DNA of 64,000 nucleotides, taken from an uncultured Micavibrio sp. (lineage in GTDB: Bacteria; Pseudomonadota; Alphaproteobacteria; Micavibrionales; UBA1664). Position 1 is the first letter of the stretch. Each line of letters opens with the position of its first letter. Positions 5,172 through 64,000 of the stretch are shown piece after piece. A program made the translations under genes and the position numbers. The stretch spans positions 284,573-348,572 of the forward strand of contig CAZHEE010000001.1 of NCBI GenBank assembly GCA_964531715.1. The letters run 5' to 3'. Below the pieces are notes generated by a model that was given only the letters and a program-made list of their open reading frames with translations, made no database searches and was not told the DNA's origin.

Positions 5172-6272
5172 ATGCCGACACTCTTTGACCGTTATGTGAT
5201 GGGGTTGACACTTGTGACCACGATAATCATCGCGCTATCGCTGACCCTCATCATTTTGTTGACGCAATCCATTCGATATCTTGAGCTGGTCATCAGCGCG
5301 GATGCATCACCTACCTATTTCCTTATTATGATCGCCTATGCCGTGCCAAAATTTCTGGAGGCTATTCTCCCGCTTGCATTCGCTATCGCAACGATTTATT
5401 GCGCACAAAGGCTCATTGCAGATCGCGAAACCATTATCATGGCGGCGGCGGGCAACCCTGTCACCACTTTCGGAAAAGGGTTTATTCTGTCCGCATTTAT
5501 TCTTATGCTATTTCAGTTTGCGCTCTCAGGCTGGCTCTCCCCCATGGCAGTCTCGGATTTGCAGGACACACGCGCCGATGTCAAAAGCCATTACGCAACA
5601 CTTGCATTCCGTGAAGGTGTCTTTAATAATTTCGGTAATGGCTTAACCGCCTATGTTGAGAAACGTCAAGGCATAAATGAGCTTTTAAACCTTATGATTC
5701 ATGATGATACGGGAAGCCTGAATGAAGGTGTGAAAACAACGATTTTGGCAAAGCGCGGTATTGTGAATTTGACAGATAATAACCAACAGCTTTTGATTTA
5801 TGACGGCACGCAATATCAGGAAAATATGGCGAGCGGGCAGATCTCCCGCCTTGATTTTGAGCAATATAGCCTCGATATACCGACACAGGAAACGGCACTT
5901 ACCCCGCGCTGGCGGGAACCTGATGAGCGAACATTTCCGAAATTGTTTATCACAGATACGTCCAGCGATACCGATATCCGGAACAAAGATTCATTTACGG
6001 CAGAAATTCATAAGCGGATAACAACGCCTATGCTTTACTTGGCCTTTACCTTGTCCATTTTAGTTATTATGTTTTTAGGCAGCTGGAACCGGCGGAGGCA
6101 AACCGCCCCACTCATCCAAGCGGCGATTGTTGTTATCATGATACAGGCCCTTCATATTGGGCTGTTTAGCGCGGCGCAAGATAATCCATACTTGAATATC
6201 CTGCCTTATATCATTGTGTTTATACCAATTATTTTCGGAATCGTGCGACTGCGCTTTCATGCAAGGAATTGA
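5172..6272 (+). CDS. lptF: LPS export ABC transporter permease LptF
   Basis: 366-aa multi-pass membrane ORF of LptF/LptG type, divergent from pepA as in E. coli. Confidence 0.8.
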   Translation: MPTLFDRYVMGLTLVTTIIIALSLTLIILLTQSIRYLELVISADASPTYFLIMIAYAVPKFLEAILPLAFAIATIYCAQRLIADRETIIMAAAGNPVTTFGKGFILSAFILMLFQFALSGWLSPMAVSDLQDTRADVKSHYATLAFREGVFNNFGNGLTAYVEKRQGINELLNLMIHDDTGSLNEGVKTTILAKRGIVNLTDNNQQLLIYDGTQYQENMASGQISRLDFEQYSLDIPTQETALTPRWREPDERTFPKLFITDTSSDTDIRNKDSFTAEIHKRITTPMLYLAFTLSILVIMFLGSWNRRRQTAPLIQAAIVVIMIQALHIGLFSAAQDNPYLNILPYIIVFIPIIFGIVRLRFHARN

Positions 6273-6301: not shown

Positions 6302-8410
6302 CTAAATACTCCCCATCGTTCTGATTTGAGCCTTCGCGTGAATTTCGTTTTGCGACATCACCCCCGTTTGCGGACGGAAGCGTTCAATCACTGTACGCAT
6401 ATAAGGGCGAACAGGCGGAGAGGTCACAATCACGGGGTTAAGGCCTTGTGTGCCGAATGTGTCATAGGCCTCGCTCACACGTTTGATAAATTCCTGTAAT
6501 TTGGTTGGTGCCATGGCGAGCTGCCGCTCCTCCGCATCACCAATCAGGCTTTCCAAAAAGGCTTGCTCCCACTCCGCGCTTAAAGTCACGAGCTGTAGGA
6601 CACCATCCGCATTTGCATATTGATTGCAAAGCTGCCGTGCCAGACGCGCACGCACATGTTCAGTCATCAGTGCAATATTCTTTGTATGATTGGCGGCCTC
6701 GGCAATGCCTTCCAAAATGGTTGCAAGGTCACGAATTGAAACACGCTCCGCCAATAAATTTTGTAAAATCCGCTGGAGAGCCGTGACTGAAATTTGGGAC
6801 GGCACGACATCGGCAACAAGCTTCTGATATTGCTCGGGCATTTCATCAAGCAGTTTTTGGGTTTCGGTGTAGGAGAGTAAATCCTGCATATTATCCTTGA
6901 TAATCTCGGTCAAATGCGTGGTCACAACCGTTGCGGCATCAACAACCGTATACCCCTTGAAGTTTGCTTCATCACGGTATTGATCATCAATCCACATGGC
7001 GGGTAACCCAAATGTAGGCTCTGTCGTTTGCTCCCCCGGTAGGGTAATCGGCTCACCATTCGGATCCATGCATAAGAACATGCCGGGGCGCACACTTGAC
7101 CCGCCTGCCGAAATTTCCTTGATCCGCACGGCGTAGTCATTGGCCTGAAGCTGTAGATTATCCTGAATCCGAACGGACGGCAGGATGAATCCCATCTCCT
7201 CCGCCAGTTGCCGCCGTAAACCCTTAATTTGGTCGGTCAGTTTATTCCCCGTCTCTGCATTGACAAGTGGTAAGAGCCCATAACCAAGTTCAAGCCGTAT
7301 TGTATCCATCGCAAGCGTTTGTGATATCGGTTCCTCCGTAGGTTTGGCGAGGGCTTGTTTATCATCATGTTCGAGGGCGAGGGCTTTTTCATCATCCGCC
7401 AGTTGAATATTACGCATGGTCAACCACGCTACACCGCCCGCAATGGCGCCGAGAAGTAGGAAAGGGAAAGGCGGTATACCTGGCAGGAGGGCTAACACAA
7501 CCATCAAAACTGAGGTGAGTGCGAGCGCTCTCGGATACTTCCCGAATTGTGTAAAAAGTGCCTTTTGAGTCGTACCTGCGACCCCGCCTTTGGACACGAG
7601 CAAGCCTGCCGCAATAGAAACGATAAGCGCAGGTATCTGGCTCACCAATCCATCACCCACAGTCAACATAGTATAGCTGCTTGCCGCCTCGCCAAGCGAT
7701 AGCCCCATTTGCGCCGTACCGATGATAATTCCGCCGATAATATTTATGAGTGTGATCAGCAACCCTGCAATCGCGTCACCACGCACGAATTTCGCCGCAC
7801 CATCCATGCTCCCGTAAAAATTGCTTTCCTCTTCCAAGGTTTTGCGGCGTTCGCGGGCTTCATCTTCGGTGATAAGCCCGGAGGACATATCGGAATCAAT
7901 CGCCATTTGCTTGCCCGGCATGGCGTCGAGAGAGAATCGTGCGGCGACCTCGGCAATTCGTCCTGAACCCTTTGTAATCACAACAAAATTGACAAGAATC
8001 AGGATTGAAAAGACGATCAGGCCGATAACGAAATTATCCTGCATGATGAAGCCACCAAACGCGCCGATAACATCCCCCGCCGCCATGGGTCCTTCATGCC
8101 CGTGAGCAAGGATAAGGCGAGTCGAGGCCAGATTGAGCGCGAGCCTGAGCATCGTCGCAATGAGGAGAACAGTCGGAAAAGTCGAAAAATCAAGCGGTTT
8201 TTCTAGAAATAAAACAGTCATCAAAATCATGACGGACAGGGTCATGGAAAGCGCAAGCGACATGTCCAACAGCCATGTCGGCATCGGAAAAATCAGGACA
8301 GTGATAATCGCGATAATACCAAGCGCAAGCATGATATCCCCTCGAAAAATCGAGGAACGAATACCTGAAATTGAAAAATCCATACCTCTTGAGGGTTGTT
8401 GTTCTGCCAT
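6302..8410 (-). CDS. flhA: Flagellar biosynthesis protein FlhA
   Basis: 702-aa ORF with an N-terminal TM domain, the FHIPEP-type segment (GGFIMQDNFVIGLIVF...VVITKGSGRIAEVAARFSLDAMPGKQMAID) and a large cytoplasmic domain. Confidence 0.95.
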   Translation of the reverse strand: MAEQQPSRGMDFSISGIRSSIFRGDIMLALGIIAIITVLIFPMPTWLLDMSLALSMTLSVMILMTVLFLEKPLDFSTFPTVLLIATMLRLALNLASTRLILAHGHEGPMAAGDVIGAFGGFIMQDNFVIGLIVFSILILVNFVVITKGSGRIAEVAARFSLDAMPGKQMAIDSDMSSGLITEDEARERRKTLEEESNFYGSMDGAAKFVRGDAIAGLLITLINIIGGIIIGTAQMGLSLGEAASSYTMLTVGDGLVSQIPALIVSIAAGLLVSKGGVAGTTQKALFTQFGKYPRALALTSVLMVVLALLPGIPPFPFLLLGAIAGGVAWLTMRNIQLADDEKALALEHDDKQALAKPTEEPISQTLAMDTIRLELGYGLLPLVNAETGNKLTDQIKGLRRQLAEEMGFILPSVRIQDNLQLQANDYAVRIKEISAGGSSVRPGMFLCMDPNGEPITLPGEQTTEPTFGLPAMWIDDQYRDEANFKGYTVVDAATVVTTHLTEIIKDNMQDLLSYTETQKLLDEMPEQYQKLVADVVPSQISVTALQRILQNLLAERVSIRDLATILEGIAEAANHTKNIALMTEHVRARLARQLCNQYANADGVLQLVTLSAEWEQAFLESLIGDAEERQLAMAPTKLQEFIKRVSEAYDTFGTQGLNPVIVTSPPVRPYMRTVIERFRPQTGVMSQNEIHAKAQIRTMGSI

Positions 8411-53643: not shown

Positions 53644-53991
53644 ATGATTGACGCCGTGCGAACGGGTGCGTGCAAGCTTTCCCTCAAACCTGATCATGCT
53701 ATTGTGAATGAATATGAACCGGGGCAAGGCATTTCCGCGCGTGTCGATTGCGTACCCTGTTATGACGATACAATTGCCATCCTGAGCCTCGGCTCCAGTG
53801 CGGTCATGCAATTCATCAATTGTAACGAAATGCAGGAGAGCTATCTGGAGCCGCGCCGCCTGATCGTGCTCTCCGGCGAGGCGCGTTTTCGCTGGATGCA
53901 TGCGATCCCGGCCCGAAAACCCGATATGGTCGGCGGCTTTAAAATTGAGCGCAAACGGCGCGTTTCTCTCACCTTCCGAAAGATTATTTAA
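53644..53991 (+). pseudogene. AlkB-like 2OG-Fe(II) dioxygenase, C-terminal fragment
   Basis: 115 aa covers only the C-terminal half (VNEYEPGQGIS.RVD...RFRWMHAI...RVSLTFRKI). The first iron-ligand His of the HxD motif reads Arg (ARVD). E. coli AlkB is 216 aa. Confidence 0.55.
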
Positions 53992-54154: not shown

Positions 54155-54484
54155 ATGAATAAGTGGACTGTAGAAGTTTTAAATGAAACTGTGAGGGCAG
54201 AACTTAAAAGTTTGCCTGCTGATGTTAATGCGAAACTAAAGCATATCATTGAATTGATTGCGATATTTGGCCTTGAAAACGTCCACGAGCCTTACATCAA
54301 GCATATCGAGGGTAAAATCTGGGAAATGCGGATGAAAGGCAAAGATAATATAGGCCGCGCACTATATGTGACGGCAAAAGGCAAACGGGTTGTTATCCTG
54401 CATGCCTTTATTAAGAAGACACAAAAAACGCCAAATAAAGCCAAGAAACTGGCCCAACAGCGTCTTAAGGAGTTAAAAGAATGA
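54155..54484 (+). CDS. HigB/RelE-superfamily toxin (Gp49-like, DUF891 type)
   Basis: 109-aa ORF with the pattern K...L...G......P....I.GKIWEMR......R.LY......VILHAFIKKTQKTP. It has an ATGA overlap with the downstream HTH gene. Confidence 0.75.
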   Translation: MNKWTVEVLNETVRAELKSLPADVNAKLKHIIELIAIFGLENVHEPYIKHIEGKIWEMRMKGKDNIGRALYVTAKGKRVVILHAFIKKTQKTPNKAKKLAQQRLKELKE

Positions 54485-54774
54485 CCATACCTTTTGATAA
54501 AATTGCCAAAGAATGGGAAAAAGATCCAGAGTTTAGAAAAGCTTATAAAGAGCTTGAACCTGAATTCGCGCTCGCACGTTCTCTGATTGAAGCCCGCGTG
54601 CGTGCCGGGCTGACTCAAGGGGAGCTTGCAGATAAAATGGGAACCTCCCAGCCTTCTATCGCGCGCCTTGAAAGCGGCCATAAGCCAAGTCTCAAAACAT
54701 TGGAGCGCGTCGCGGAAATGACCGGGTCCAAATTGATGATTCAGCTGGTGCCACAAGACACGCAGCGCGCATAA
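54481..54774 (+). CDS. XRE-family HTH antitoxin (HigA-like)
   Basis: 97-aa ORF with the HTH GLTQGELADKMGTSQPSIARLESG. It is coupled to the toxin gene. Confidence 0.75.
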   Translation: MTIPFDKIAKEWEKDPEFRKAYKELEPEFALARSLIEARVRAGLTQGELADKMGTSQPSIARLESGHKPSLKTLERVAEMTGSKLMIQLVPQDTQRA

Positions 54775-54813: not shown

Positions 54814-55329
54814 CTAGAGGGCTTTATTTTGCCAGGGTCTGGGCGGGATGAGAGTGCCGGTGATGGGCGCGGCGTTATGATCCAGCATGACTGATTGCCA
54901 TGCTCCATCCCATTCGGCGGGAAGGTCATAGGACGGCTTGATGTCCCTCTCAGTTTCGAACCCATACCGGCCATAAAAATCCGGATCACCCAGGACACAG
55001 ACCTTTGCAATGCCACGCAGTTTCATTGCCTCAAACCCGCCCTGAATAAGCGCGCGGCCAATACCCTGACCTTGCCGGTCTGGCAAAACGCCCAGCGGCC
55101 CGAGCAGCCCGACTTGACCCGCGCTCCCCTCAACCGCGCAGAGTGTGAAAACCACATGACCGATAATCTCATCTCCCACTACCGCAACCAGCGATAAAAT
55201 ATCCTTGCCCTCATGCAGCAAATCCCGTACCAGCGGTTGTAAATTCTCCTCCGGGAATATCGCCGGATAGATACCAACAATCGCAGCGGCTTCTTCTGGC
55301 GTGCTTGGGCGGATGGAATATACGGTCAT
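54814..55329 (-). CDS. GNAT family N-acetyltransferase
   Basis: 171-aa ORF with the acetyl-CoA binding pattern LGVLPDRQGQGIGRALI. Confidence 0.8.
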   Translation of the reverse strand: MTVYSIRPSTPEEAAAIVGIYPAIFPEENLQPLVRDLLHEGKDILSLVAVVGDEIIGHVVFTLCAVEGSAGQVGLLGPLGVLPDRQGQGIGRALIQGGFEAMKLRGIAKVCVLGDPDFYGRYGFETERDIKPSYDLPAEWDGAWQSVMLDHNAAPITGTLIPPRPWQNKAL

Positions 55330-55338
55330 TTTTTCCTC

Positions 55339-56150
55339 TTAACAGCTTTCGTTGTCGGCAACACGGAATGCGTTTCGCATCATTCCTATTTCGCGGGAAG
55401 AGAATTTAAGCTCCTTTGCCAGCGCCTGCCACTCACGAACAGATGAAATGACTTCTTTTAGTATTGCATCTCTGCGCTCTTCAGAAATTCTGAAAATCTC
55501 CGCTATGCTTTTAAGCAGCACAATATCCTGGCTGTTATCTTCCCGTGAGATATATAGTGACAATCCGTTTCCAGTCGGAACAGGGTTCATATCATAGGCC
55601 GTTGAGAGCACCCAGCCCTGCGGCGTGAGTAGTCGACCTCGTCCTCGGCATGTTCTTGCTCCAGCTTTAAGCTTGCATGTTCAAGCACGCGCAGTTTTGT
55701 CCATGGCGGCGCAGCCATATCCGTATGATCGTCCAAAAAAGGGCCGTCATTCGTCAATCTAAAGCGCAGAGCGCCCATGCGGTGGCCGTCATAAACGCCG
55801 AGCAGGTAATCAGACTCCATAAGCGGGCGCATAGCGCGCTCTTCTGCCTTTGCCTTTTGGGCTTCGCGTCGCTGCATCAATACACGCCCCCAACGGTCCG
55901 GCGAAGAGTCCAGAAAAACACCGAAATTATCGCGGCTTTCTCTTGTGTATTGCGGCCCCTCAAACAAACCCAGCTCAGGGTCAAGAACTTGCGCATGTTT
56001 GGATTTTAACCAGGCCGGATCATACTCAAAAGAAAACACCTCTTTCCCTCTAACCGGTGCGGCATAAAGCGTTCCCATAAGCACAGGCTCATCCATGCCC
56101 ACCCAATGCGCGCAAACCTGAATCGCTTTTTGTATTTGTTTCTTGCTCAT
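55339..56150 (-). pseudogene. hipA: hipA-family toxin gene with internal deletion and frameshift
   Basis: The 187-aa ORF is the HipA N-terminal region (FLDSSPDRWGRVLMQRRE..DYLLGVYDGHRMGALRF). The 90-aa ORF in another frame is the extreme C-terminus (GWVLSTAYDMNP...). The P-loop and catalytic-loop segment between them is missing. E. coli HipA is 440 aa. Confidence 0.75.
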
Positions 56151-56170
56151 ACCATCACCTGCATGCTCGC

Positions 56171-56491
56171 TTATGTTTCTTTTTTGGGCGCGCGTTCTTT
56201 CGTATGTGTCAGCTCTGCATCTTGTAAGCGCCGTCCCAATGGGTCATCTTTTCCAAGAAATTGCAGGTCTTTTTCCAAACCCAGGCAGAACAAAACACTG
56301 GCATAGGCTCCCATCGTCACGCTGCTTTCGCCGTTTTCAATTTTGCGCAATGTTGCCCTGTTCATGCCCGCTCTTTCCGCAAGCATGGTTGTCGTGATTT
56401 TTCGGCGCAATCGCGCCAGCTTTATGTTCTCGCCCACCTCTTTGAGAATATCTTCAACAAAAGGCGGCAGGGCGGCTGTTTTTCTTGGCAT
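56171..56491 (-). CDS. HipB-like XRE-family HTH protein
   Basis: HTH TTTMLAERAGMNRATLRKIENGE. The ATG at 56491 (MPRKTA) is preferred. It ends 20 nt upstream of the hipA remnant. Confidence 0.7.
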   Translation of the reverse strand: MPRKTAALPPFVEDILKEVGENIKLARLRRKITTTMLAERAGMNRATLRKIENGESSVTMGAYASVLFCLGLEKDLQFLGKDDPLGRRLQDAELTHTKERAPKKET

Positions 56492-56632
56492 AGCAAACCT
56501 CTCAATGGTTATTATTATAACCACATAAATATTAAAATGTCTATAATAACTATCATTGATAAAATTTGAATTATAGCCTTATGATCTTTACAAAAGCTCC
56601 GGCGCATCCTCGTACAGAAAGGAAAGCGTCCC

Positions 56633-57194: not shown

Positions 57195-57847
57195 GCGGCC
57201 TGATTACCTGCGCCGCGACGGGCAAAGTCGTGACGGCGTCTGAGCAGAAAAAGACCTATAAAAACGGCGGTACGGCTTCATGGACGTATTTAAGATGCTG
57301 GAAGCCGGATAACCCCGAAAAGCAAATGTGGGTGCGCGAAGAGAAAGTGTTGGAGCAGGTTGAAGAAGTTTTGAAAAAGCTGGCCTGTGACGAAGAAACG
57401 CTGGCTTATCTCAACGGCTATTTACGGGAGATTGAGGAAAATGAGCGCGGCTTTTTACGCCGCCAGATTAGCGAGTGGCAAAAGCAGCATGCCAAGCTGC
57501 AAAATCGCCTTGATACGCTGATGGATTTATTGCTCGACGGCATGATTGAGCGCGAGGAATTCGAGGCCAAGAAATCAAAAATCCGTGAAGATCAGAGTTA
57601 TCTGGAGCAGCAAATTGCCAATGCCCGCTCCGGCGATGATGCGTTTAAGGATGCGATGCTCACGATCCTGTCCATCGCCTCGGAAGCGTATGATTTGTTC
57701 AAAGGTTCTAGCGTAGAGCTGAAAAGAGAGATGGTGAATCGGGTATTTGCGAACTTGAAGCTCGACGGCGGAAAGCTGCGCTATACTTTGCGTGAACCCT
57801 TCGACAAGATGCTGAATTTAACCAATCGTCTTGAATGGCAGGTGTAA
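57195..57847 (+). pseudogene. Large serine recombinase, C-terminal remnant only
   Basis: A zinc-ribbon-like segment with one Cys lost (GLITCAATGK...YLRC) is followed by the coiled-coil (LDTLMDLLLDGMIEREEFEAKKSKI). No N-terminal resolvase catalytic domain is present. Confidence 0.6.
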
Positions 57848-58119: not shown

Positions 58120-58512
58120 TTATGCCGCCATCGAGTTGTTTCTACGTTCAACTTCTGAGCAAATCTCGGCCATACGATTGAGGTTCCGCATCATTTTAAG
58201 AATGATGTCCATGCCCTCATCGGGTAATTGATCAATCTCAGCAGCGAGCCTCAAAATATTTGATGTTTTTTGTACGCTCTCGTCATCACCGTCACCATAA
58301 AAATACCCGACGGGTTTGCCCAAGGCCTTGGCACATAGGATCATCTTGTGCGCAGCCATGCTGCTGATGCCATTTTCGTATCGTTGCATTTGTTGCCCTG
58401 AAACACCGATCATTTGACCAAGGTCTTTTTGGGACAGTTTCAGGCGCTGACGTTCAATCATGATCTTTGATCCGATATCCCGCCTGTATTGTTTTTCTGT
58501 GTTTTCCATCAT
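58120..58512 (-). CDS. XRE-family HTH regulator
   Basis: HTH LSQKDLGQMIGVSGQQMQRYENG. The ATG at 58512 is preceded by AAGGAGG, whereas the ORF-track GTG start at 58527 lies inside that RBS. Confidence 0.75.
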   Translation of the reverse strand: MMENTEKQYRRDIGSKIMIERQRLKLSQKDLGQMIGVSGQQMQRYENGISSMAAHKMILCAKALGKPVGYFYGDGDDESVQKTSNILRLAAEIDQLPDEGMDIILKMMRNLNRMAEICSEVERRNNSMAA

Positions 58513-58535
58513 AACATCCTCCTTCACAATATCTG

Positions 58536-59036
58536 TTATGACGCTTTAGACTTGAACGTCGCGTTACTACATTCGATCCAGAAACGCTTATATAATGTGT
58601 AATAAGCTTTCTGCACCGCCCAATAAACATTCACCATGTCTTCACAATGTTGTTCAGCACGCGCCTGATCCAAATCAATCGCTGCCCCGTCTGTTTTATC
58701 GGAGCGGTTGGTGCGGACATCCTTAATGGATTCAAAAGCGATATTACGGACATAGGCCATCACATCACCCACCGCCATAATCGGCATCGCATCGACAAAG
58801 GTGTTTCCACGCAATCCCAACTTAACGATATCAACAATCTGTTGTGCCTGACCGGCATTCGATGCCTTTAATACAATATCGTAAAGGTGGGACAGCGTTT
58901 CATCACGCTTGGCTTGCATCTCTGCAAAGCTGTTGTCACCCATTTCATTATTGTTACATGATTGACGCATTGCCTTGGCGACAATAGCCCGGAATTTTTG
59001 AGACTTTCCTGTCTTGTTATATATTGCCATGTTCAT
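58536..59036 (-). CDS. Hypothetical protein (166 aa)
   Basis: ATG-initiated ORF immediately upstream of the XRE gene in an apparent two-gene operon. No family recognised. Confidence 0.5.
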   Translation of the reverse strand: MNMAIYNKTGKSQKFRAIVAKAMRQSCNNNEMGDNSFAEMQAKRDETLSHLYDIVLKASNAGQAQQIVDIVKLGLRGNTFVDAMPIMAVGDVMAYVRNIAFESIKDVRTNRSDKTDGAAIDLDQARAEQHCEDMVNVYWAVQKAYYTLYKRFWIECSNATFKSKAS

Positions 59037-59067: not shown

Positions 59068-59232
59068 TTCAAAAAAATCAGAGCACCTTGCCCTGATATC
59101 GATAAATATAAACATAATGTCTTAATGAAAAGTTAATAGTTGCTAATTAATATCAAAAATGATAGAATAAATTATATTTTGATAACTAATGTAAATGAAT
59201 GTTTACTTTTTGTAAAAATTGAGAAGATAAAA

Positions 59233-59874
59233 ATGAAAAATGGTAAACAATTAGTCGCAGCAAGAGGGCTCTTGGGATGGACACAAGATGACTTATCGAG
59301 ACAAAGCGATGTTGCAAAACCGACAATTATCCGGCTTGAAAATAATGAAGTCAGCCCCAATACGAATACAGTTAACAAGATTACTGCGGCTATTAATAAG
59401 GCTGGTGTGATTTTTACTGATAAAGGCGTCGAGTACACCGATAACAGAATAACTATCATTGAAAGTGACACTTGGTACTTAGAGCTTTTGGATGATGTTT
59501 TGTATACACTAGAAGGCCAAAAAAGAAATAAAGTATTGAGAACTTCATTTGCTGATGATCGGAAATCAACACAAGAAGGAATAGAGGCTTTAAGGAGACT
59601 TAAGAAGGCTGGCATTGAAAATCGCATTACATGCGAAAAAGGCAATACATTTCTCCTAGACCAGGTTTCCTCATATAGATGGGTTGAGCCTAAGAATTAT
59701 ACAAATTGGCTTACTCTTATATACGGCAACAAAGTAGCGGTTAGCATTAATAATGAAAAAGGATGCACAATAATTGACGATGCCGATTTTGCAAACGCAT
59801 GTCGATTACAATTTGACCTAACTTGGAATTTTTTAGAAACACCTACAAGGAGCACCGCAGATGTCCGACTATAA
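59233..59874 (+). CDS. HTH (XRE-type) protein with an uncharacterised C-terminal domain
   Basis: The ATG at 59233 is preceded by gagaag. The N-terminal HTH is LLGWTQDDLSRQSDVAKPTIIRLENNE, followed by a ~150-aa unknown domain. The gene overlaps the next gene by 14 nt. Confidence 0.6.
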   Translation: MKNGKQLVAARGLLGWTQDDLSRQSDVAKPTIIRLENNEVSPNTNTVNKITAAINKAGVIFTDKGVEYTDNRITIIESDTWYLELLDDVLYTLEGQKRNKVLRTSFADDRKSTQEGIEALRRLKKAGIENRITCEKGNTFLLDQVSSYRWVEPKNYTNWLTLIYGNKVAVSINNEKGCTIIDDADFANACRLQFDLTWNFLETPTRSTADVRL

Positions 59875-60502
59875 AGTTAAAGTATTATCTAACGCAAGTT
59901 GGAGAAATTATAAAAAGGCTCGCTTGGATATATCGCTTCAAAACACGAAACAAGTTGGAGAAAAATTTGAGGCAACTCTTTTATGGGCTTTAGAAAATTT
60001 TGATGAGATAGAAGTTTCTTTGGCAGATACACTACAAAGACATACTTTTTCTGCCGATTATGATATTCCATTGGATAAAGCCAATAATCTTACTTTGCGT
60101 GAAGGAGACATATGGATACAATGCCATAGTGACCTATTAACCCGTCACAACGTGGTAGTAAAAAGATGGGACGAGCGCATCCAAGATACGGCGTTTGAAT
60201 TTTTTCATAATCAAGTTAGAGAGCTCTATTCACAGGACAAAACATTCAAAGACCTCGTTAATAGCGATTGTCAATCTTTTATGAGTAGACGTAACTATTG
60301 TGAAACAAAAAAATTGTTTGTTTTAAATTATATTTTGGAAGAGCAGGCCGTATTCTCAATGCTATCAGAAAGAGACCAAGCTATAGGGATTTATCCTGGG
60401 TCAATTTTGGGATGCTATCGAGGACATGATCGACCAGATCTGTTCGCAAAGACAGAATTTTGCAAAATTGACTTTCTTAGAAAAAAGACAGCGGAGCTAT
60501 AA
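59861..60502 (+). CDS. Cyclodipeptide synthase (CDPS)-like protein, tentative
   Basis: 213-aa ORF with an AAGGAG RBS. By-eye alignment to recalled AlbC/YvmC sequences gives three matches. DISLQN...LLWALENF aligns with GIS.GN...LL.WA..F. RW.E....T.F......V...Y..D..F aligns with the mid-region pattern. LNYILEE aligns with the catalytic Y-x3-E, followed by IYPG / CYRG. Not verified by a search. Confidence 0.5.
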   Translation: MSDYKVKVLSNASWRNYKKARLDISLQNTKQVGEKFEATLLWALENFDEIEVSLADTLQRHTFSADYDIPLDKANNLTLREGDIWIQCHSDLLTRHNVVVKRWDERIQDTAFEFFHNQVRELYSQDKTFKDLVNSDCQSFMSRRNYCETKKLFVLNYILEEQAVFSMLSERDQAIGIYPGSILGCYRGHDRPDLFAKTEFCKIDFLRKKTAEL

Positions 60503-60760: not shown

Positions 60761-61201
60761 ATGAGAGATATAATGATCATGAATAAAAAAGTCGGTGCCA
60801 GTTCGCGCAATCGCAATATCACAATGGAACAGCATATTGGCAAACGCCTCGTTCTCGTTCGCACCGCCAATGAATTAAGCCGTGAAGCTCTGGCAGATGC
60901 ACTAGGAATTACACACCAACAAATCGGGAAATATGAACGCGGTGAAAATCGTATTTCAGCCTCAACACTTTATCAAATGATCAAATACTTTAAAGTTGAA
61001 CCGGATTTTTTCTATCAAGGCTACTCGGAAGAAGAAGTTGCAGCCACCATCACAACAATCGGACATATTACTCATTCCGGTGTGCGCGTCATGAATGAAA
61101 TAGGCAAAGGGAAAGATGCACAAATTCGTCAAAAAATTGCCAAGACCGTCATGCCAATCATAAAGGCTCTGAATTATTATTATGATGAGAAGGCAATTTG
61201 A
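60761..61201 (+). CDS. XRE-family HTH regulator
   Basis: HTH LSREALADALGITHQQIGKYERGEN. Candidate ATG starts are at 60761, 60773 and 60779, and the ORF-track start at 60689 is unlikely. Confidence 0.7.
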   Translation: MRDIMIMNKKVGASSRNRNITMEQHIGKRLVLVRTANELSREALADALGITHQQIGKYERGENRISASTLYQMIKYFKVEPDFFYQGYSEEEVAATITTIGHITHSGVRVMNEIGKGKDAQIRQKIAKTVMPIIKALNYYYDEKAI

Positions 61202-61387: not shown

Positions 61388-61927
61388 ATGAGCCATTTTG
61401 AGAAATCAATCGCGCAACTAAATAGAAAAATCAATGCCGGGATGGCTAAAGGCGCTAAGACTAGACGTCGTCTCGTATATGCAGGGTTATTAACTGCGGC
61501 TTTCGCAGCCGTAGCGGAGCCAGGATATAATTTTATTCAGGATGAAATTGCACGTCAGCAACAACTTCAGGAAGATCGACGTGCCGAAGCTGAAAGACAA
61601 AGACAGTTAGAAGCAGAGAGACGTCGTCAAGCAGAAGAACAGCGCAGATTAAGAGATAGACCAATTCGTCATTATATTGTCACGGGTGTTTCTACAAGAT
61701 TAAATATGAGATCAGGCCCAGGCACTGGCTATTCGAATGATTACGATATTTATAATGGCGCATGCTTAACGCCCACATCTTCTCAACCATATGCCAATAG
61801 AGGATGGATCAGAGTAAGCGTCAGTTTGAATAATGGTCCGCAAAGGCAATTTTATGTAAGTAGTCGGTATTTAAGACCTGTGAGGGACTCCATACCTGGC
61901 TGCTCAAGATTTAATATTACGAGGTAA
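61388..61927 (+). CDS. Membrane-anchored protein with an Arg/Glu/Gln coiled-coil and a bacterial SH3-like domain
   Basis: 179-aa ORF with a TM helix (LVYAGLLTAAFAAVA), a charged repeat (QQLQEDRRAEAERQRQLEAERRRQAEEQRRLR) and the SH3b-like segment LNMRSGPGTGYS. Confidence 0.55.
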   Translation: MSHFEKSIAQLNRKINAGMAKGAKTRRRLVYAGLLTAAFAAVAEPGYNFIQDEIARQQQLQEDRRAEAERQRQLEAERRRQAEEQRRLRDRPIRHYIVTGVSTRLNMRSGPGTGYSNDYDIYNGACLTPTSSQPYANRGWIRVSVSLNNGPQRQFYVSSRYLRPVRDSIPGCSRFNITR

Positions 61928-61942
61928 TCGAAAGATAAAACA

Positions 61943-64000
61943 ATGTCAGATAAGAAAACAAAAATTGAGATTCTGGATAAAGAAGAAGATAAGCAGGATA
62001 AAATGCGTCATGCTTTTGATGTCGCTCAAGAACAGAAAAAATATAATGTTCCAACCACTCTTCCTGAAAGTGGTGTCGATTTACTAGATAGCGAGTCAGG
62101 TTTTATAGTTGGTGCGCGTGGTTTCGCAACCATGCAAATAGAAACCGACAAACATATGATTACCATTGCCAATACCGGTGGCGGTAAAGGTCGAGCCGTT
62201 GCTATTCCGAATATGCTTAATCATAACGGATCATTGTTCTCCATAGAAATCGGTGGGACAGGCTATAAGCAAACACATAATTATCGTCGCTCTGTACTTG
62301 GACAGGATGTTCATTTGATTGACCCATTAGGGGCCATAAAAGGTGAAAAATCTGCCTGTTTCAATGTGCTGGATACTGTTGATCCTCATGACCCGAGATT
62401 TATTACAGAAATGAAGCAAATTGCAGATAGCCTGTTAAAACATCCGAAAGGCAAAGAGCCCAACGATCCTTATTTTGAAAACACGCCGCGTGAGCTATTA
62501 TTATCTTTGCTTATTCATGTTAAAACTTCTGACAGTATCTCTGATGAAGATCGCCATCTGCCAAAGGTCGCTGAATTGATAGCATCTTATGGTAGCGAAG
62601 AGTGGGATGAACTGATGCACGCTTTTGCATCAGACACAGGAAGATATAGAGCAAGCTTTAACAAAGCCGGTAACTATTTTCACGGTGTCAATGATGAAAA
62701 CACACGGAGTATCATCAGCAGCATCAGCAACAGCGCCTTATCTTTTGTCGAAGATCCCGCCTTTGCAGAAATTCTGAAGACGTCTTCATTTGACCTGAAT
62801 AATTTCCGAGAGAAGAAAACAAGTCTCTATATTGTTTTACCAGAAATCGAAGACTTTAAAACAAACTCGGCATTTTTTCGGATGCTGACAGAAAGAGCTT
62901 TTGTTGCCTGTCCGAATTTAGGAGATGGTGGCCGCAGCTTTACCCACGATGACCGTGCGCTGTTTATGCTGGATGAGTTTACCCAGTTAGGGAAACTTGA
63001 TGTCATTGACACAGGCATGCAAACCGCTCGCCAAAAAGGAATTACCATCTGGGCTTTATTTCAGGATATCGGTCGACTTGAAGCGCTATACGGCAAGGAA
63101 ATAGCTGGATCATTTTTAGGAGCTGCCGGTGTTGTGCAGGTTTTTGATGTTGGCGATGAAAGAACCAAAGAATATGTTTCAAACCGTGTCGGAAACAATC
63201 TGGTGATGATTCCAACCGTGCAACATAGTATTACGGATACGGATGGCAAAAATACCACGTGGAGTGAGGCCATCAGCCTTGGCACGAACAGATCACAAAG
63301 CAAAGCCCATACAACAGGCACAAGTGAAACATGGAGTACAGCCATTGGTGAATCGACAGCCTTTACAAAAACAAGCGGATATCAGGGCGGACAAAATGGT
63401 GGCCACAATTGGTCAAACAGCCGGACAGATACATATTCTCGCACGGATACAAAAGGTGGTGGACGTAGCAATTCTGATACTGACACAAACACAGAAGGAA
63501 CGTCCGAGCAAAATACAAACACGCAAGGGGGAGGCGCATCTTCGCAGAGAGGTGAAACATACAGTGTATCCTTCACACCACAAAAAATGCCTAAAATGGA
63601 GCCTGCCGAAGTTGAAAACTATCTGGGCACGGACAACCAACAAATAATTTTTGTTCGATCCCAAGGTCAGGTGCGTTATTTACTGGATTTCAGATCCAAT
63701 TATGACCAGATACCCTATTTAAACGCTCGTGCTTATGGACCAGGAGACGACGTTTTTCCAGCGCCATTATTTTTACCGCCACAGCATACAAAATTATTGC
63801 CATCACCACGAAAAGCTCTGCAAATGGCTGCTAACGTTTTTGTTGTAGAGCGGCCTGAAAAAGTCACGGTTAAGCCGTTCTCAAAAATTGCAAACGGAGC
63901 GCAAATTACAGTCCCTGACTCTAATGAGGTTGTGACATATAAAGAAAATAGACGAACAGGTGTCGGAACGAATTTACGTCAAAGGATTAAAATCCGTGCA
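61943..64000 (+). CDS. Type IV secretion coupling protein (TraG/VirD4 family), 3' end beyond the window
   Basis: Hand-translated open frame of 686 codons from the ATG at 61943 to the window edge. It is absent from the ORF track because it has no stop in the window. Walker A is ANTGGGKGRA and Walker B is ALFMLDEF, followed by ARQKGITIWALFQDIGRLEALYG. Confidence 0.8.
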   Translation, partial: MSDKKTKIEILDKEEDKQDKMRHAFDVAQEQKKYNVPTTLPESGVDLLDSESGFIVGARGFATMQIETDKHMITIANTGGGKGRAVAIPNMLNHNGSLFSIEIGGTGYKQTHNYRRSVLGQDVHLIDPLGAIKGEKSACFNVLDTVDPHDPRFITEMKQIADSLLKHPKGKEPNDPYFENTPRELLLSLLIHVKTSDSISDEDRHLPKVAELIASYGSEEWDELMHAFASDTGRYRASFNKAGNYFHGVNDENTRSIISSISNSALSFVEDPAFAEILKTSSFDLNNFREKKTSLYIVLPEIEDFKTNSAFFRMLTERAFVACPNLGDGGRSFTHDDRALFMLDEFTQLGKLDVIDTGMQTARQKGITIWALFQDIGRLEALYGKEIAGSFLGAAGVVQVFDVGDERTKEYVSNRVGNNLVMIPTVQHSITDTDGKNTTWSEAISLGTNRSQSKAHTTGTSETWSTAIGESTAFTKTSGYQGGQNGGHNWSNSRTDTYSRTDTKGGGRSNSDTDTNTEGTSEQNTNTQGGGASSQRGETYSVSFTPQKMPKMEPAEVENYLGTDNQQIIFVRSQGQVRYLLDFRSNYDQIPYLNARAYGPGDDVFPAPLFLPPQHTKLLPSPRKALQMAANVFVVERPEKVTVKPFSKIANGAQITVPDSNEVVTYKENRRTGVGTNLRQRIKIRA

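Follow-up and report, generated by a model that had tools for sequence, protein, structure and literature searches.

A conserved two-gene cassette joins a divergent cyclodipeptide synthase to a helix-turn-helix protein with a predicted phospholipase D-like domain in Micavibrio and other Alphaproteobacteria

A 64,000-nucleotide stretch of DNA from an uncultured Micavibrio sp. (assembly GCA_964531715.1, contig CAZHEE010000001.1, positions 284,573 to 348,572), which we refer to in its entirety as the window, carries two overlapping forward-strand genes that each encode 213 amino acids. The first (59233..59874), hereafter the partner gene, encodes a protein with an N-terminal XRE-type helix-turn-helix (HTH; Pfam HTH_3, E = 8.5e-8) and a C-terminal domain with a phospholipase D (PLD)-like fold, and the second (59861..60502) encodes an XYP-type cyclodipeptide synthase (CDPS). 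A first-pass annotation, made from the sequence without database searches, had given these coordinates and a 14-nt overlap, and reading the open reading frames (ORFs) shows both to be correct, with the overlap spanning 59861-59874. The junction (59847..59874, forward strand) is predicted from its sequence to support translational coupling: a Shine-Dalgarno sequence, AAGGAG (59847-59852), lies 8 nt 5' of the CDPS ATG at 59861, and the partner stop codon follows at 59872-59874. The partner start is a conserved ATG at 59233, and the aligned methionine is used as the start by 94% of homologues; an alternative, longer start (TTG at 59140) falls within a promoter-like region. The G+C content of the pair is about 35-37%, versus 45-50% in its surroundings.

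By sequence comparison and predicted fold, the downstream product is a divergent tRNA-dependent CDPS and a new member of a known family, as the annotation had proposed from motifs aligned by eye. The profile comparison suggested at that stage gives a split answer: as a single sequence the protein falls below the curated cut-offs (PF16715, 18.4 versus 27 bits; TIGR04539, 39 versus 45 bits, E = 6e-10), but a clade profile built from eight CDPS clade members matches PDB sequences of Fdum-CDPS (5ocd) at 3.9e-30, Nbra-CDPS at 1.7e-25, and AlbC at 7.8e-5. A phmmer search of PDB sequences with the window CDPS returned solely CDPSs, including Nbra-CDPS (3.5e-10) and Fdum-CDPS (1e-8), and the relatives P0006-P0008 have precomputed PF16715 matches. 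An identical protein is already present in both NCBI and JGI, where the JGI label is 'tRNA-dependent cyclodipeptide synthase'. Structure prediction, which the annotation had also recommended, agrees. An AlphaFold (AF2) model with a mean predicted local distance difference test score (pLDDT) of 89 and a predicted template-modeling score (pTM) of 0.84 has the Rossmann-like CDPS fold, kin to the catalytic domains of class-I aminoacyl-tRNA synthetases, and the best 50 matches in a Foldseek search of the PDB are all CDPSs, with template-modeling (TM) scores of 0.82-0.85 for the XYP enzymes 5OCD, 9J61, and 5MLQ. More broadly, Fdum-CDPS (5OCD), Nbra-CDPS (5MLQ/9I5M), which makes cyclo(Ala-Glu), and BcmA-type enzymes (9J61) have the same fold as the window CDPS (TM 0.81-0.85), at an identity of only 17-23%.

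The catalytic residues are intact. The motifs DISLQN, LNYILEE, and IYPG singled out in the annotation are all present and fall on the catalytic Ser, Tyr/Glu, and Tyr-Pro positions of CDPSs, and these assignments stand up to alignment with Nbra-CDPS and to conservation in relatives. The catalytic Ser34 of Nbra-CDPS, which is Ala in the S34A crystal variant, lines up with Ser25; Nbra Y172/E176 are matched by Y157-x-x-E160-E161, and Nbra Y202-P203 by Y178-P179; the motif DTLQRH is also common to the two enzymes. In AlbC numbering, the set S37/Y178/E182/Y202 corresponds to S25, Y157, E161, and Y178 of the window CDPS, all invariant in alignment A1. The loci retrieved supply 40 related CDPSs, in which Ser25, Glu160/161, Tyr178, and Asp56 (window numbering) are invariant and the position equivalent to AlbC Y178 (window Y157) is Tyr in 32 and Phe in 8. 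Assignment to the XYP subfamily, which had been raised on the strength of IYPG, is borne out by Y178-P179 (Pro at 203 after Tyr202), with N28 at the X40 position, and XYP enzymes are the best matches in both structure and sequence. We note a partner-coupled subclade (L004, L024, L026, L028, L029, L030, L032, and L034) in which the catalytic Tyr (AlbC Y178) is replaced by Phe and the XYP Pro by Ala, giving an F...Y-A pattern; its members keep the Ser, the Glu, and Tyr202.

Mapped by alignment, the substrate pockets of the window CDPS read R-D-S-A-W-V-F-G (P1) and D-S-F-R-G-I-L (P2). No characterized specificity group has matching pockets, and therefore the product is not predictable. Nbra L32 sets the size of the P1 pocket (PMC13062777); the equivalent residue is Asp in the window CDPS and Gln in most relatives, which hints, from alignment, at a polar first substrate.

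The partner combines two domains, and the annotation's description of an XRE HTH joined to an uncharacterized domain of about 150 amino acids holds for both parts and for the overlap with the CDPS gene; the second domain can now be given a likely fold. The HTH occupies residues 1-56 (59233..59400), with helices at 4-14, 18-25, 29-36, and 44-56 in an AF2 model of high confidence (pLDDT 94.6, from a 68-sequence alignment). The best match of the partner profile in the PDB is the C.Kpn2I controller protein (E = 2.3e-12), followed by HipB, HigA, and the 434 and P22 repressors. The C-terminal alpha/beta domain (residues 60-213; 59410..59871) is matched by Foldseek to the nuclease Nuc (1byr, E = 2.4e-5) and to TrmBL2 (5bpi, 2.7e-5), as well as to NucT, Zucchini, and the sugar-binding domain of TrmB (2f5t, 1.4e-2). 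At the sequence level this domain goes unmatched: the partner profile finds solely HTH proteins among PDB sequences, with nothing for the C-terminal domain, and a Pfam scan of 68 partner-family members left the domain without a match and included no TrmB or PLD model. In the same 68 members no His column is conserved at 50% or more, no Lys column exceeds 71%, and the HxK(x)4D pattern is not found, so the HKD catalytic motif is absent.

The partner family comprises at least 149 clusters, all of about 213 amino acids. Scanning all 1.84 billion representatives by HMMER with the C-terminal domain gave 274 relatives (representative clusters) which, fragments aside, are 200-260 amino acids long, mostly 205-230, with the domain C-terminal, usually at residues ~61-213. 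The architecture is thus fixed, because the domain sits C-terminally in proteins of about 213 amino acids throughout the 274 relatives. A metagenome scan with the partner alignment was dominated by generic HTH proteins and yielded four full-length distant relatives. In 83% of 253 comparisons the partner is better conserved than the CDPS, and conservation of its C-terminal domain is no lower than that of its HTH. In its predicted structure, the partner looks to be built like a one-component regulator, an HTH joined to a compact, conserved, TrmB-effector-like fold. It resembles TrmB and TrmBL2 in predicted architecture and fold, a DNA-binding HTH with a noncatalytic PLD-like alpha/beta domain, but differs in that its HTH is XRE-type and not winged-helix, in having no detectable sequence homology to them, and in lacking a C-terminal barrel subdomain.

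A distant subfamily of HTH-PLD-like genes, scoring about 100 bits against the CDPS-linked profile, occurs without a CDPS (L051:4001-4651 and 6689-7351; L132/L133:4001-4651; L134:4001-4666; L050:3986-4675). In several genomes these genes lie between fpg and groESL and are followed by a 496-aa or 391-aa protein of no recognized family, by a methyltransferase, or by nothing. Because these distant members occupy a syntenic fpg-groESL locus without a CDPS, the HTH-PLD family looks, from its distribution, to have been ancestrally a family of regulators.

We gathered about 40 CDPS loci by looking up identical proteins and by scanning GTDB species genomes. The cassette is carried by about 30 independent loci, mostly in Alphaproteobacteria such as Micavibrio, and the neighborhood survey that had been proposed recovers the same pair many times over, with flanks unrelated from one locus to the next. 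Hidden Markov model searches of the locus ORFs place a full-length partner directly upstream of the CDPS gene in ~27 of 39 genome loci and in every metagenome locus that belongs to the clade. The 14-nt overlap is exact in 15 of 26 distinct junctions, most of the others overlapping by 4-29 nt, and the CDPS ATG lies inside the codons for the conserved partner C terminus, S-T-A-D/N-E-R-F. Because the pair recurs in some 30 independent loci with so many exact overlaps, the pairing is not due to chance. It also holds in the reciprocal direction: each of the close partner homologues identified without reference to the CDPS (P0011, P0012, P0013, P0016, P0058, P0099, and the P0006 locus) is followed by a gene that overlaps it to the same extent, and this is a CDPS gene wherever a test was possible; that of P0016 encodes a 210-aa product with no Pfam match on record. 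In a neighbor-joining tree, the HTH-PLD-paired enzymes group together, with unpaired Nbra-like enzymes and other arrangements outside; the window CDPS type is always found with an HTH-PLD protein, but no partner accompanies the Nbra-like genes L040 and L041. For 23 partner-CDPS pairs, the pairwise identities of the two proteins, computed from pairwise alignments, correlate with r = 0.90. A first mirror-tree value of r = 0.41 was distorted by gap columns and was discarded.

Nothing else travels consistently with the pair. Across 119 ORFs that flank the pair in 23 loci, Pfam recognizes 125 families, each present in four loci at most, and there is no recurrent oxidase, P450, transporter, integrase, tailoring, or export gene, in keeping with the annotation's remark that the usual tailoring genes are missing; blastp clustering of flanking ORFs likewise gave no recurrent neighbor save in near-identical loci. 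Some cassettes sit in housekeeping settings, between cmk and rpsA (L129) or beside the pyruvate kinase gene (L006), and others at the edges of integrative elements, with a tyrosine integrase, AlpA, and D5 primase (L131) or an integrase and Toprim (the P0016 locus). The hosts are chiefly alphaproteobacterial metagenome-assembled genomes (MAGs; Micavibrio, Rickettsiales-like), with a few Gamma- and Betaproteobacteria. One Micavibrio MAG, GCA_964539025.1, has three cassettes (L129, L011, and L028), and in L020 one partner gene is followed by two tandem CDPS genes. No relative was found in IMG/VR viral contigs; among 72,556 PLSDB plasmids the partner domain is absent and the CDPS has two weak matches only, on megaplasmids; and E. 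coli genomes and plasmids contain no match to the window DNA. The pair is a conserved, self-contained, and autonomous cassette.

Several loci show variant forms. The cassette between cmk and rpsA (L129:3193-6008) has an extra, orphan partner-like gene (5364-6008) and two divergent small ORFs. In L011 the CDPS gene is intact and the partner gene is 5'-truncated, with the N-terminal half gone. A partner-coupled CDPS in L043 (5983-7860) is 626 amino acids long, with a C-terminal extension of about 400 amino acids that has no Pfam match.

On the reverse strand, a gene for a 166-aa protein (58536..59036) is transcribed divergently from the partner gene across a 196-bp spacer. Homologues found by jackhmmer occupy the same position and orientation in L004, L005, L017, L028, L030, L034, L129, and L131 (two copies), and occur nowhere else in those loci; the gene thus recurs in at least 9 loci and, judged by this positional conservation, is likely a third component of the module in many of them. 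Its product has no match in Pfam, PHROG, NCBIfam, or the PDB. In four loci the divergent gene is followed by a second small, conserved reverse-strand ORF of ~66-87 amino acids with the motif MDS-x-x-F-x-D-x-E-x-A (L028:4747-5010, L030:4606-4812, L034:4800-5000, and L129:3193-3429); the corresponding position in the window is taken by a 135-aa XRE gene (58120..58527, reverse strand), and no counterpart of the ORF was noted there. The spacer contains a promoter-like site, TTGCTA-17-TAGAAT (59140-59168, forward strand), overlapped by an inverted repeat, TATCAAAA-N18-TTTTGATA (59151-59184), that is a candidate operator, the two together spanning 59140..59184. Elements resembling TTGCA..TATAAT lie upstream of the partner gene in most loci.

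The window cassette lies within an island (53.6-61.9 kb) downstream of rplS-trmD-rimM. Between its left end and the divergent gene are the C-terminal half of an AlkB-like 2OG-Fe(II) oxygenase gene (53644..53991, forward), a toxin-antitoxin (TA)-like module of Gp49/HigB-like and HTH genes (54155..54771, forward), a GNAT acetyltransferase gene with an upstream 83-aa ORF in a TacAT-like layout (54814..55590, reverse), a 187-aa HipA N-terminal fragment (a split hipA) with a HipB-like HTH gene (55587..56524, reverse), and a C-terminal fragment of a large serine integrase (57230..57847, forward; PHROG 95 integrase, E = 3e-14, profile positions 394-560 of 651). Downstream of the pair are a second XRE gene (60773..61201, forward) and a gene for a type IV secretion system (T4SS) coupling protein (61943..64000, forward; T4SS-DNA_transf, E = 1.4e-52, with TraG-D_C and TrwB_AAD_bind also matched), which runs off the window end and is intact, at 1036 amino acids, in L001. 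Directly 5' of the coupling protein gene, 61388-61927 (forward) encodes a 179-aa protein with a charged, coiled-coil-like QQ/EE/RR stretch and weak similarity to SH3_3 and to a phage-amidase C terminus. The annotation had correctly placed the pair among XRE regulators and a T4SS coupling gene. Its view of the pair as cargo of a conjugative-element remnant is reasonable in the window, given the coupling protein gene, the integrase fragment, and the TA modules, but is not general, as other loci lie amid housekeeping genes or beside other integrative elements.

The wider CDPS clade includes other partners and fusions. Genes for FRG-domain proteins (PF08867, E = 1e-17 to 1e-18) lie directly upstream of related CDPS genes in L023 (4800-6678) and L037 (4708-6657); FRG is an ART-superfamily domain predicted by the Aravind group to be an NADase effector of immunity systems (PMC9503650). 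A protein of about 385 amino acids, with an XRE HTH and a different, unrecognized C-terminal region of about 310 amino acids, precedes the CDPS in L025, L027, L031, and L033 (Planctomycetota) and in L042 (Roseobacteraceae). We considered whether it belongs to the same family as the 213-aa partner and rejected this, as hhalign aligns the HTH only and not the PLD-like domain. In L038 (1767-2936) and L045 (5455-6603) a YbaK/ProX-like aminoacyl-tRNA editing domain is fused N-terminally to the CDPS (PF04073 and PF16715, ~385 amino acids), and ORFs of ~390 amino acids and similar sequence in L039 (5458-6642) and L044 (5464-6639) cluster with these fusions; the hosts of these four loci are Methylococcaceae/Methylomonas, an unclassified proteobacterium, and Anabaena MAGs.

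One member of the clade has been assayed. CDPS 35 (MICA_581, WP_014102141) of Micavibrio aeruginosavorus ARL-13 was inactive when overexpressed alone in E. coli (Jacques et al. 2015, as tabulated in the supplement of Gondry et al., PMC5816076). It is 33% identical to the window CDPS over the full length (E = 6e-34) and belongs to the same clade; its closest relatives among the loci gathered here are the CDPSs of L131 and L135 (54-57% identity), both of which are partner-paired with a 14-nt overlap. Its pockets, as given in that supplement table, are RDSAWVFD (P1) and AQYRGIL (P2), the former differing from the RDSAWVFG of the window CDPS at the last residue. A search of the available literature found no paper in which a CDPS is tied to an antitoxin, a PLD-like regulator, or a partner of the XRE/HTH kind, nor any on the arrangement that the annotation's author had not known to be described; the cassette is apparently an undescribed arrangement and a new variant of CDPS gene organization.

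How might the two proteins work together? The reading that we favor, and to which we give about an even chance, is that the cassette consists of a regulator, possibly a sensor of the product, and a synthase, with the HTH-PLD protein controlling the CDPS operon. The cassette would be a self-contained, horizontally moving operon in which a sigma-70-type promoter drives two translationally coupled genes. The first would encode a one-component transcription factor, with an XRE HTH that binds DNA and a catalytically dead PLD-fold domain, and the second an XYP CDPS that, by homology, would use two aminoacyl-tRNAs through a Ser25 acyl-enzyme to form an untailored cyclodipeptide. The regulator would bind the divergent intergenic region and govern both the operon and the small gene that diverges from it; its PLD-like domain would sense a ligand, most plausibly the cyclodipeptide, or mediate oligomerization, and the unit would make a diffusible signal or allelochemical. 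The DNA target, the ligand, the product, and the biological role are all parts of this scheme that we infer, and the cyclodipeptide is a putative ligand in the same sense. A narrower form, reached by analogy and held only tentatively, is a portable, private signaling unit in which the CDPS would make a specific diketopiperazine, the co-evolving HTH-PLD protein would be its receptor, and the divergent small gene would be its first target. The analogy is with LuxI/LuxR and with RRNPP receptor-peptide cassettes, which likewise place the source of a small molecule beside a dedicated HTH protein with a putative sensor domain, move as whole units, and can have several divergent copies in a genome; the protein families are unrelated, however.

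Several observations weigh against the regulator-and-synthase reading. The window's 8+8 inverted repeat has a chance expectation of ~20%, making it an operator candidate only, and when the 120 nt preceding each of 21 partner genes were compared with dinucleotide-shuffled sequence, perfect inverted repeats showed no enrichment (mean arm, 6.5 versus 6.3). CDPS 35, the sole clade member assayed, gave no detectable cyclodipeptide alone in E. coli, according to its entry in the PMC5816076 supplement. The partners of related CDPSs include FRG-domain proteins, predicted to act in immunity as effectors (PMC9503650). Finally, the cassette is scattered, consists of two overlapping genes with the HTH gene first, can be present in several copies in a genome, and, in the window, lies in a TA-rich island, all of them features that also suit TA or defense modules.

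These last features lead to the best-surviving alternative, a TA or abortive infection-like module in which the CDPS drains aminoacyl-tRNAs or makes a toxic product and the HTH-PLD protein is an antitoxin that binds the enzyme and autorepresses the operon. As in type II TA systems (HipBA, HigBA, and TacAT), the pair forms a bicistronic operon with the DNA-binding gene first, a 14-nt overlap, and an internal Shine-Dalgarno sequence; the cassette is mobile, scattered in unrelated contexts and at integrative-element edges, and present three times in one MAG; and the window copy sits among HigB/HigA-like, GNAT, and HipA/HipB-like modules. The partner HTH resembles those of HipB, HigA, and C-proteins, and the strong co-divergence would suit a tight complex. 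Toxins directed at aminoacyl-tRNAs have precedents in TacT and AtaT, and the CDPS and TacT have this substrate class in common. We nevertheless regard such a module as unlikely. The partner is large and globular, its C-terminal part being a well-folded 150-aa domain, and it evolves more slowly than the enzyme, a degree of conservation that differs from that of typical fast-evolving antitoxins. There is no toxin family match, and NCBIfam TA models and PADLOC match the HTH only; a match to GajB (16 bits) in a scan of a defense library was spurious. One partner serves two CDPS genes in L020, and L011 retains an intact CDPS gene with a 5'-truncated partner gene, though its promoter may be lost too. 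Many CDPSs, including CDPS 35, have been overexpressed in E. coli, and the passages of the PMC5816076 supplement on CDPS 35 list it merely as inactive and do not mention toxicity.

The inactivity of CDPS 35 also bears on the idea that the partner is an obligatory subunit or activator, for example one that presents tRNA through its nuclease-like fold, and that the CDPS is inactive alone. Because CDPS 35 is inactive by itself in that tabulated assay, the partner is possibly needed for activity; coupled translation and strong co-divergence fit this arrangement, and in Nuc and Zucchini the PLD fold is a nucleic acid-binding scaffold. Inactivity in E. coli has many trivial causes, however, and characterized CDPSs work alone, as described in PMC13062777 and PMC5816076. 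An HTH would be unexplained in a pure enzyme subunit, and distant partner-family members exist without a CDPS. We therefore consider an obligatory subunit improbable.

By analogy with CBASS, the CDPS might instead make a cyclodipeptide second messenger upon phage infection, to which the partner or FRG-type proteins would respond. Such a role could account for the swapping of partners in the wider clade (HTH-PLD proteins, the 385-aa HTH protein, and FRG-domain proteins; PMC9503650), and it is in keeping with mobile or TA-rich settings and with a SLATT_4 effector domain encoded in one flank. But PADLOC gives no match beyond generic HTHs, the flanks are mostly housekeeping genes and not defense islands, the HTH-PLD cassette itself has no effector domain, and the FRG-paired CDPSs fall outside the HTH-PLD-paired cluster in the neighbor-joining tree; an anti-phage signaling role is very doubtful on this evidence. 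The notion that the pair is decaying, nonfunctional cargo of a degraded mobile element, suggested by its fragmentary neighbors in the window (the AlkB-like gene, the split hipA, and the integrase), is barely credible given that both ORFs are intact and identical in independent metagenome contigs, that catalytic and family-invariant residues are retained, and that the cassette is conserved across phyla.

CDPSs are usually seen as the first enzymes of tailored secondary-metabolite pathways; the clade described here is without tailoring genes and is tied to a DNA-binding partner, and it comprises hundreds of sequence clusters, found chiefly in Alphaproteobacteria that are uncultured, predatory, or host-associated. 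Solving how the cassette works would establish a new domain family associated with HTHs and account for a negative result on record in the CDPS literature. If the CDPS proves to be a toxin or part of a defense system, it would be a new effector that consumes aminoacyl-tRNAs, and if the partner proves to be a subunit, some CDPSs would need a partner protein. If, as in the regulator-and-synthase reading that we favor, the partner turns out to be a receptor for the product, it would be the first cognate receptor for a tRNA-derived cyclodipeptide, and bacteria and mobile elements would have private chemical channels made from aminoacyl-tRNAs.

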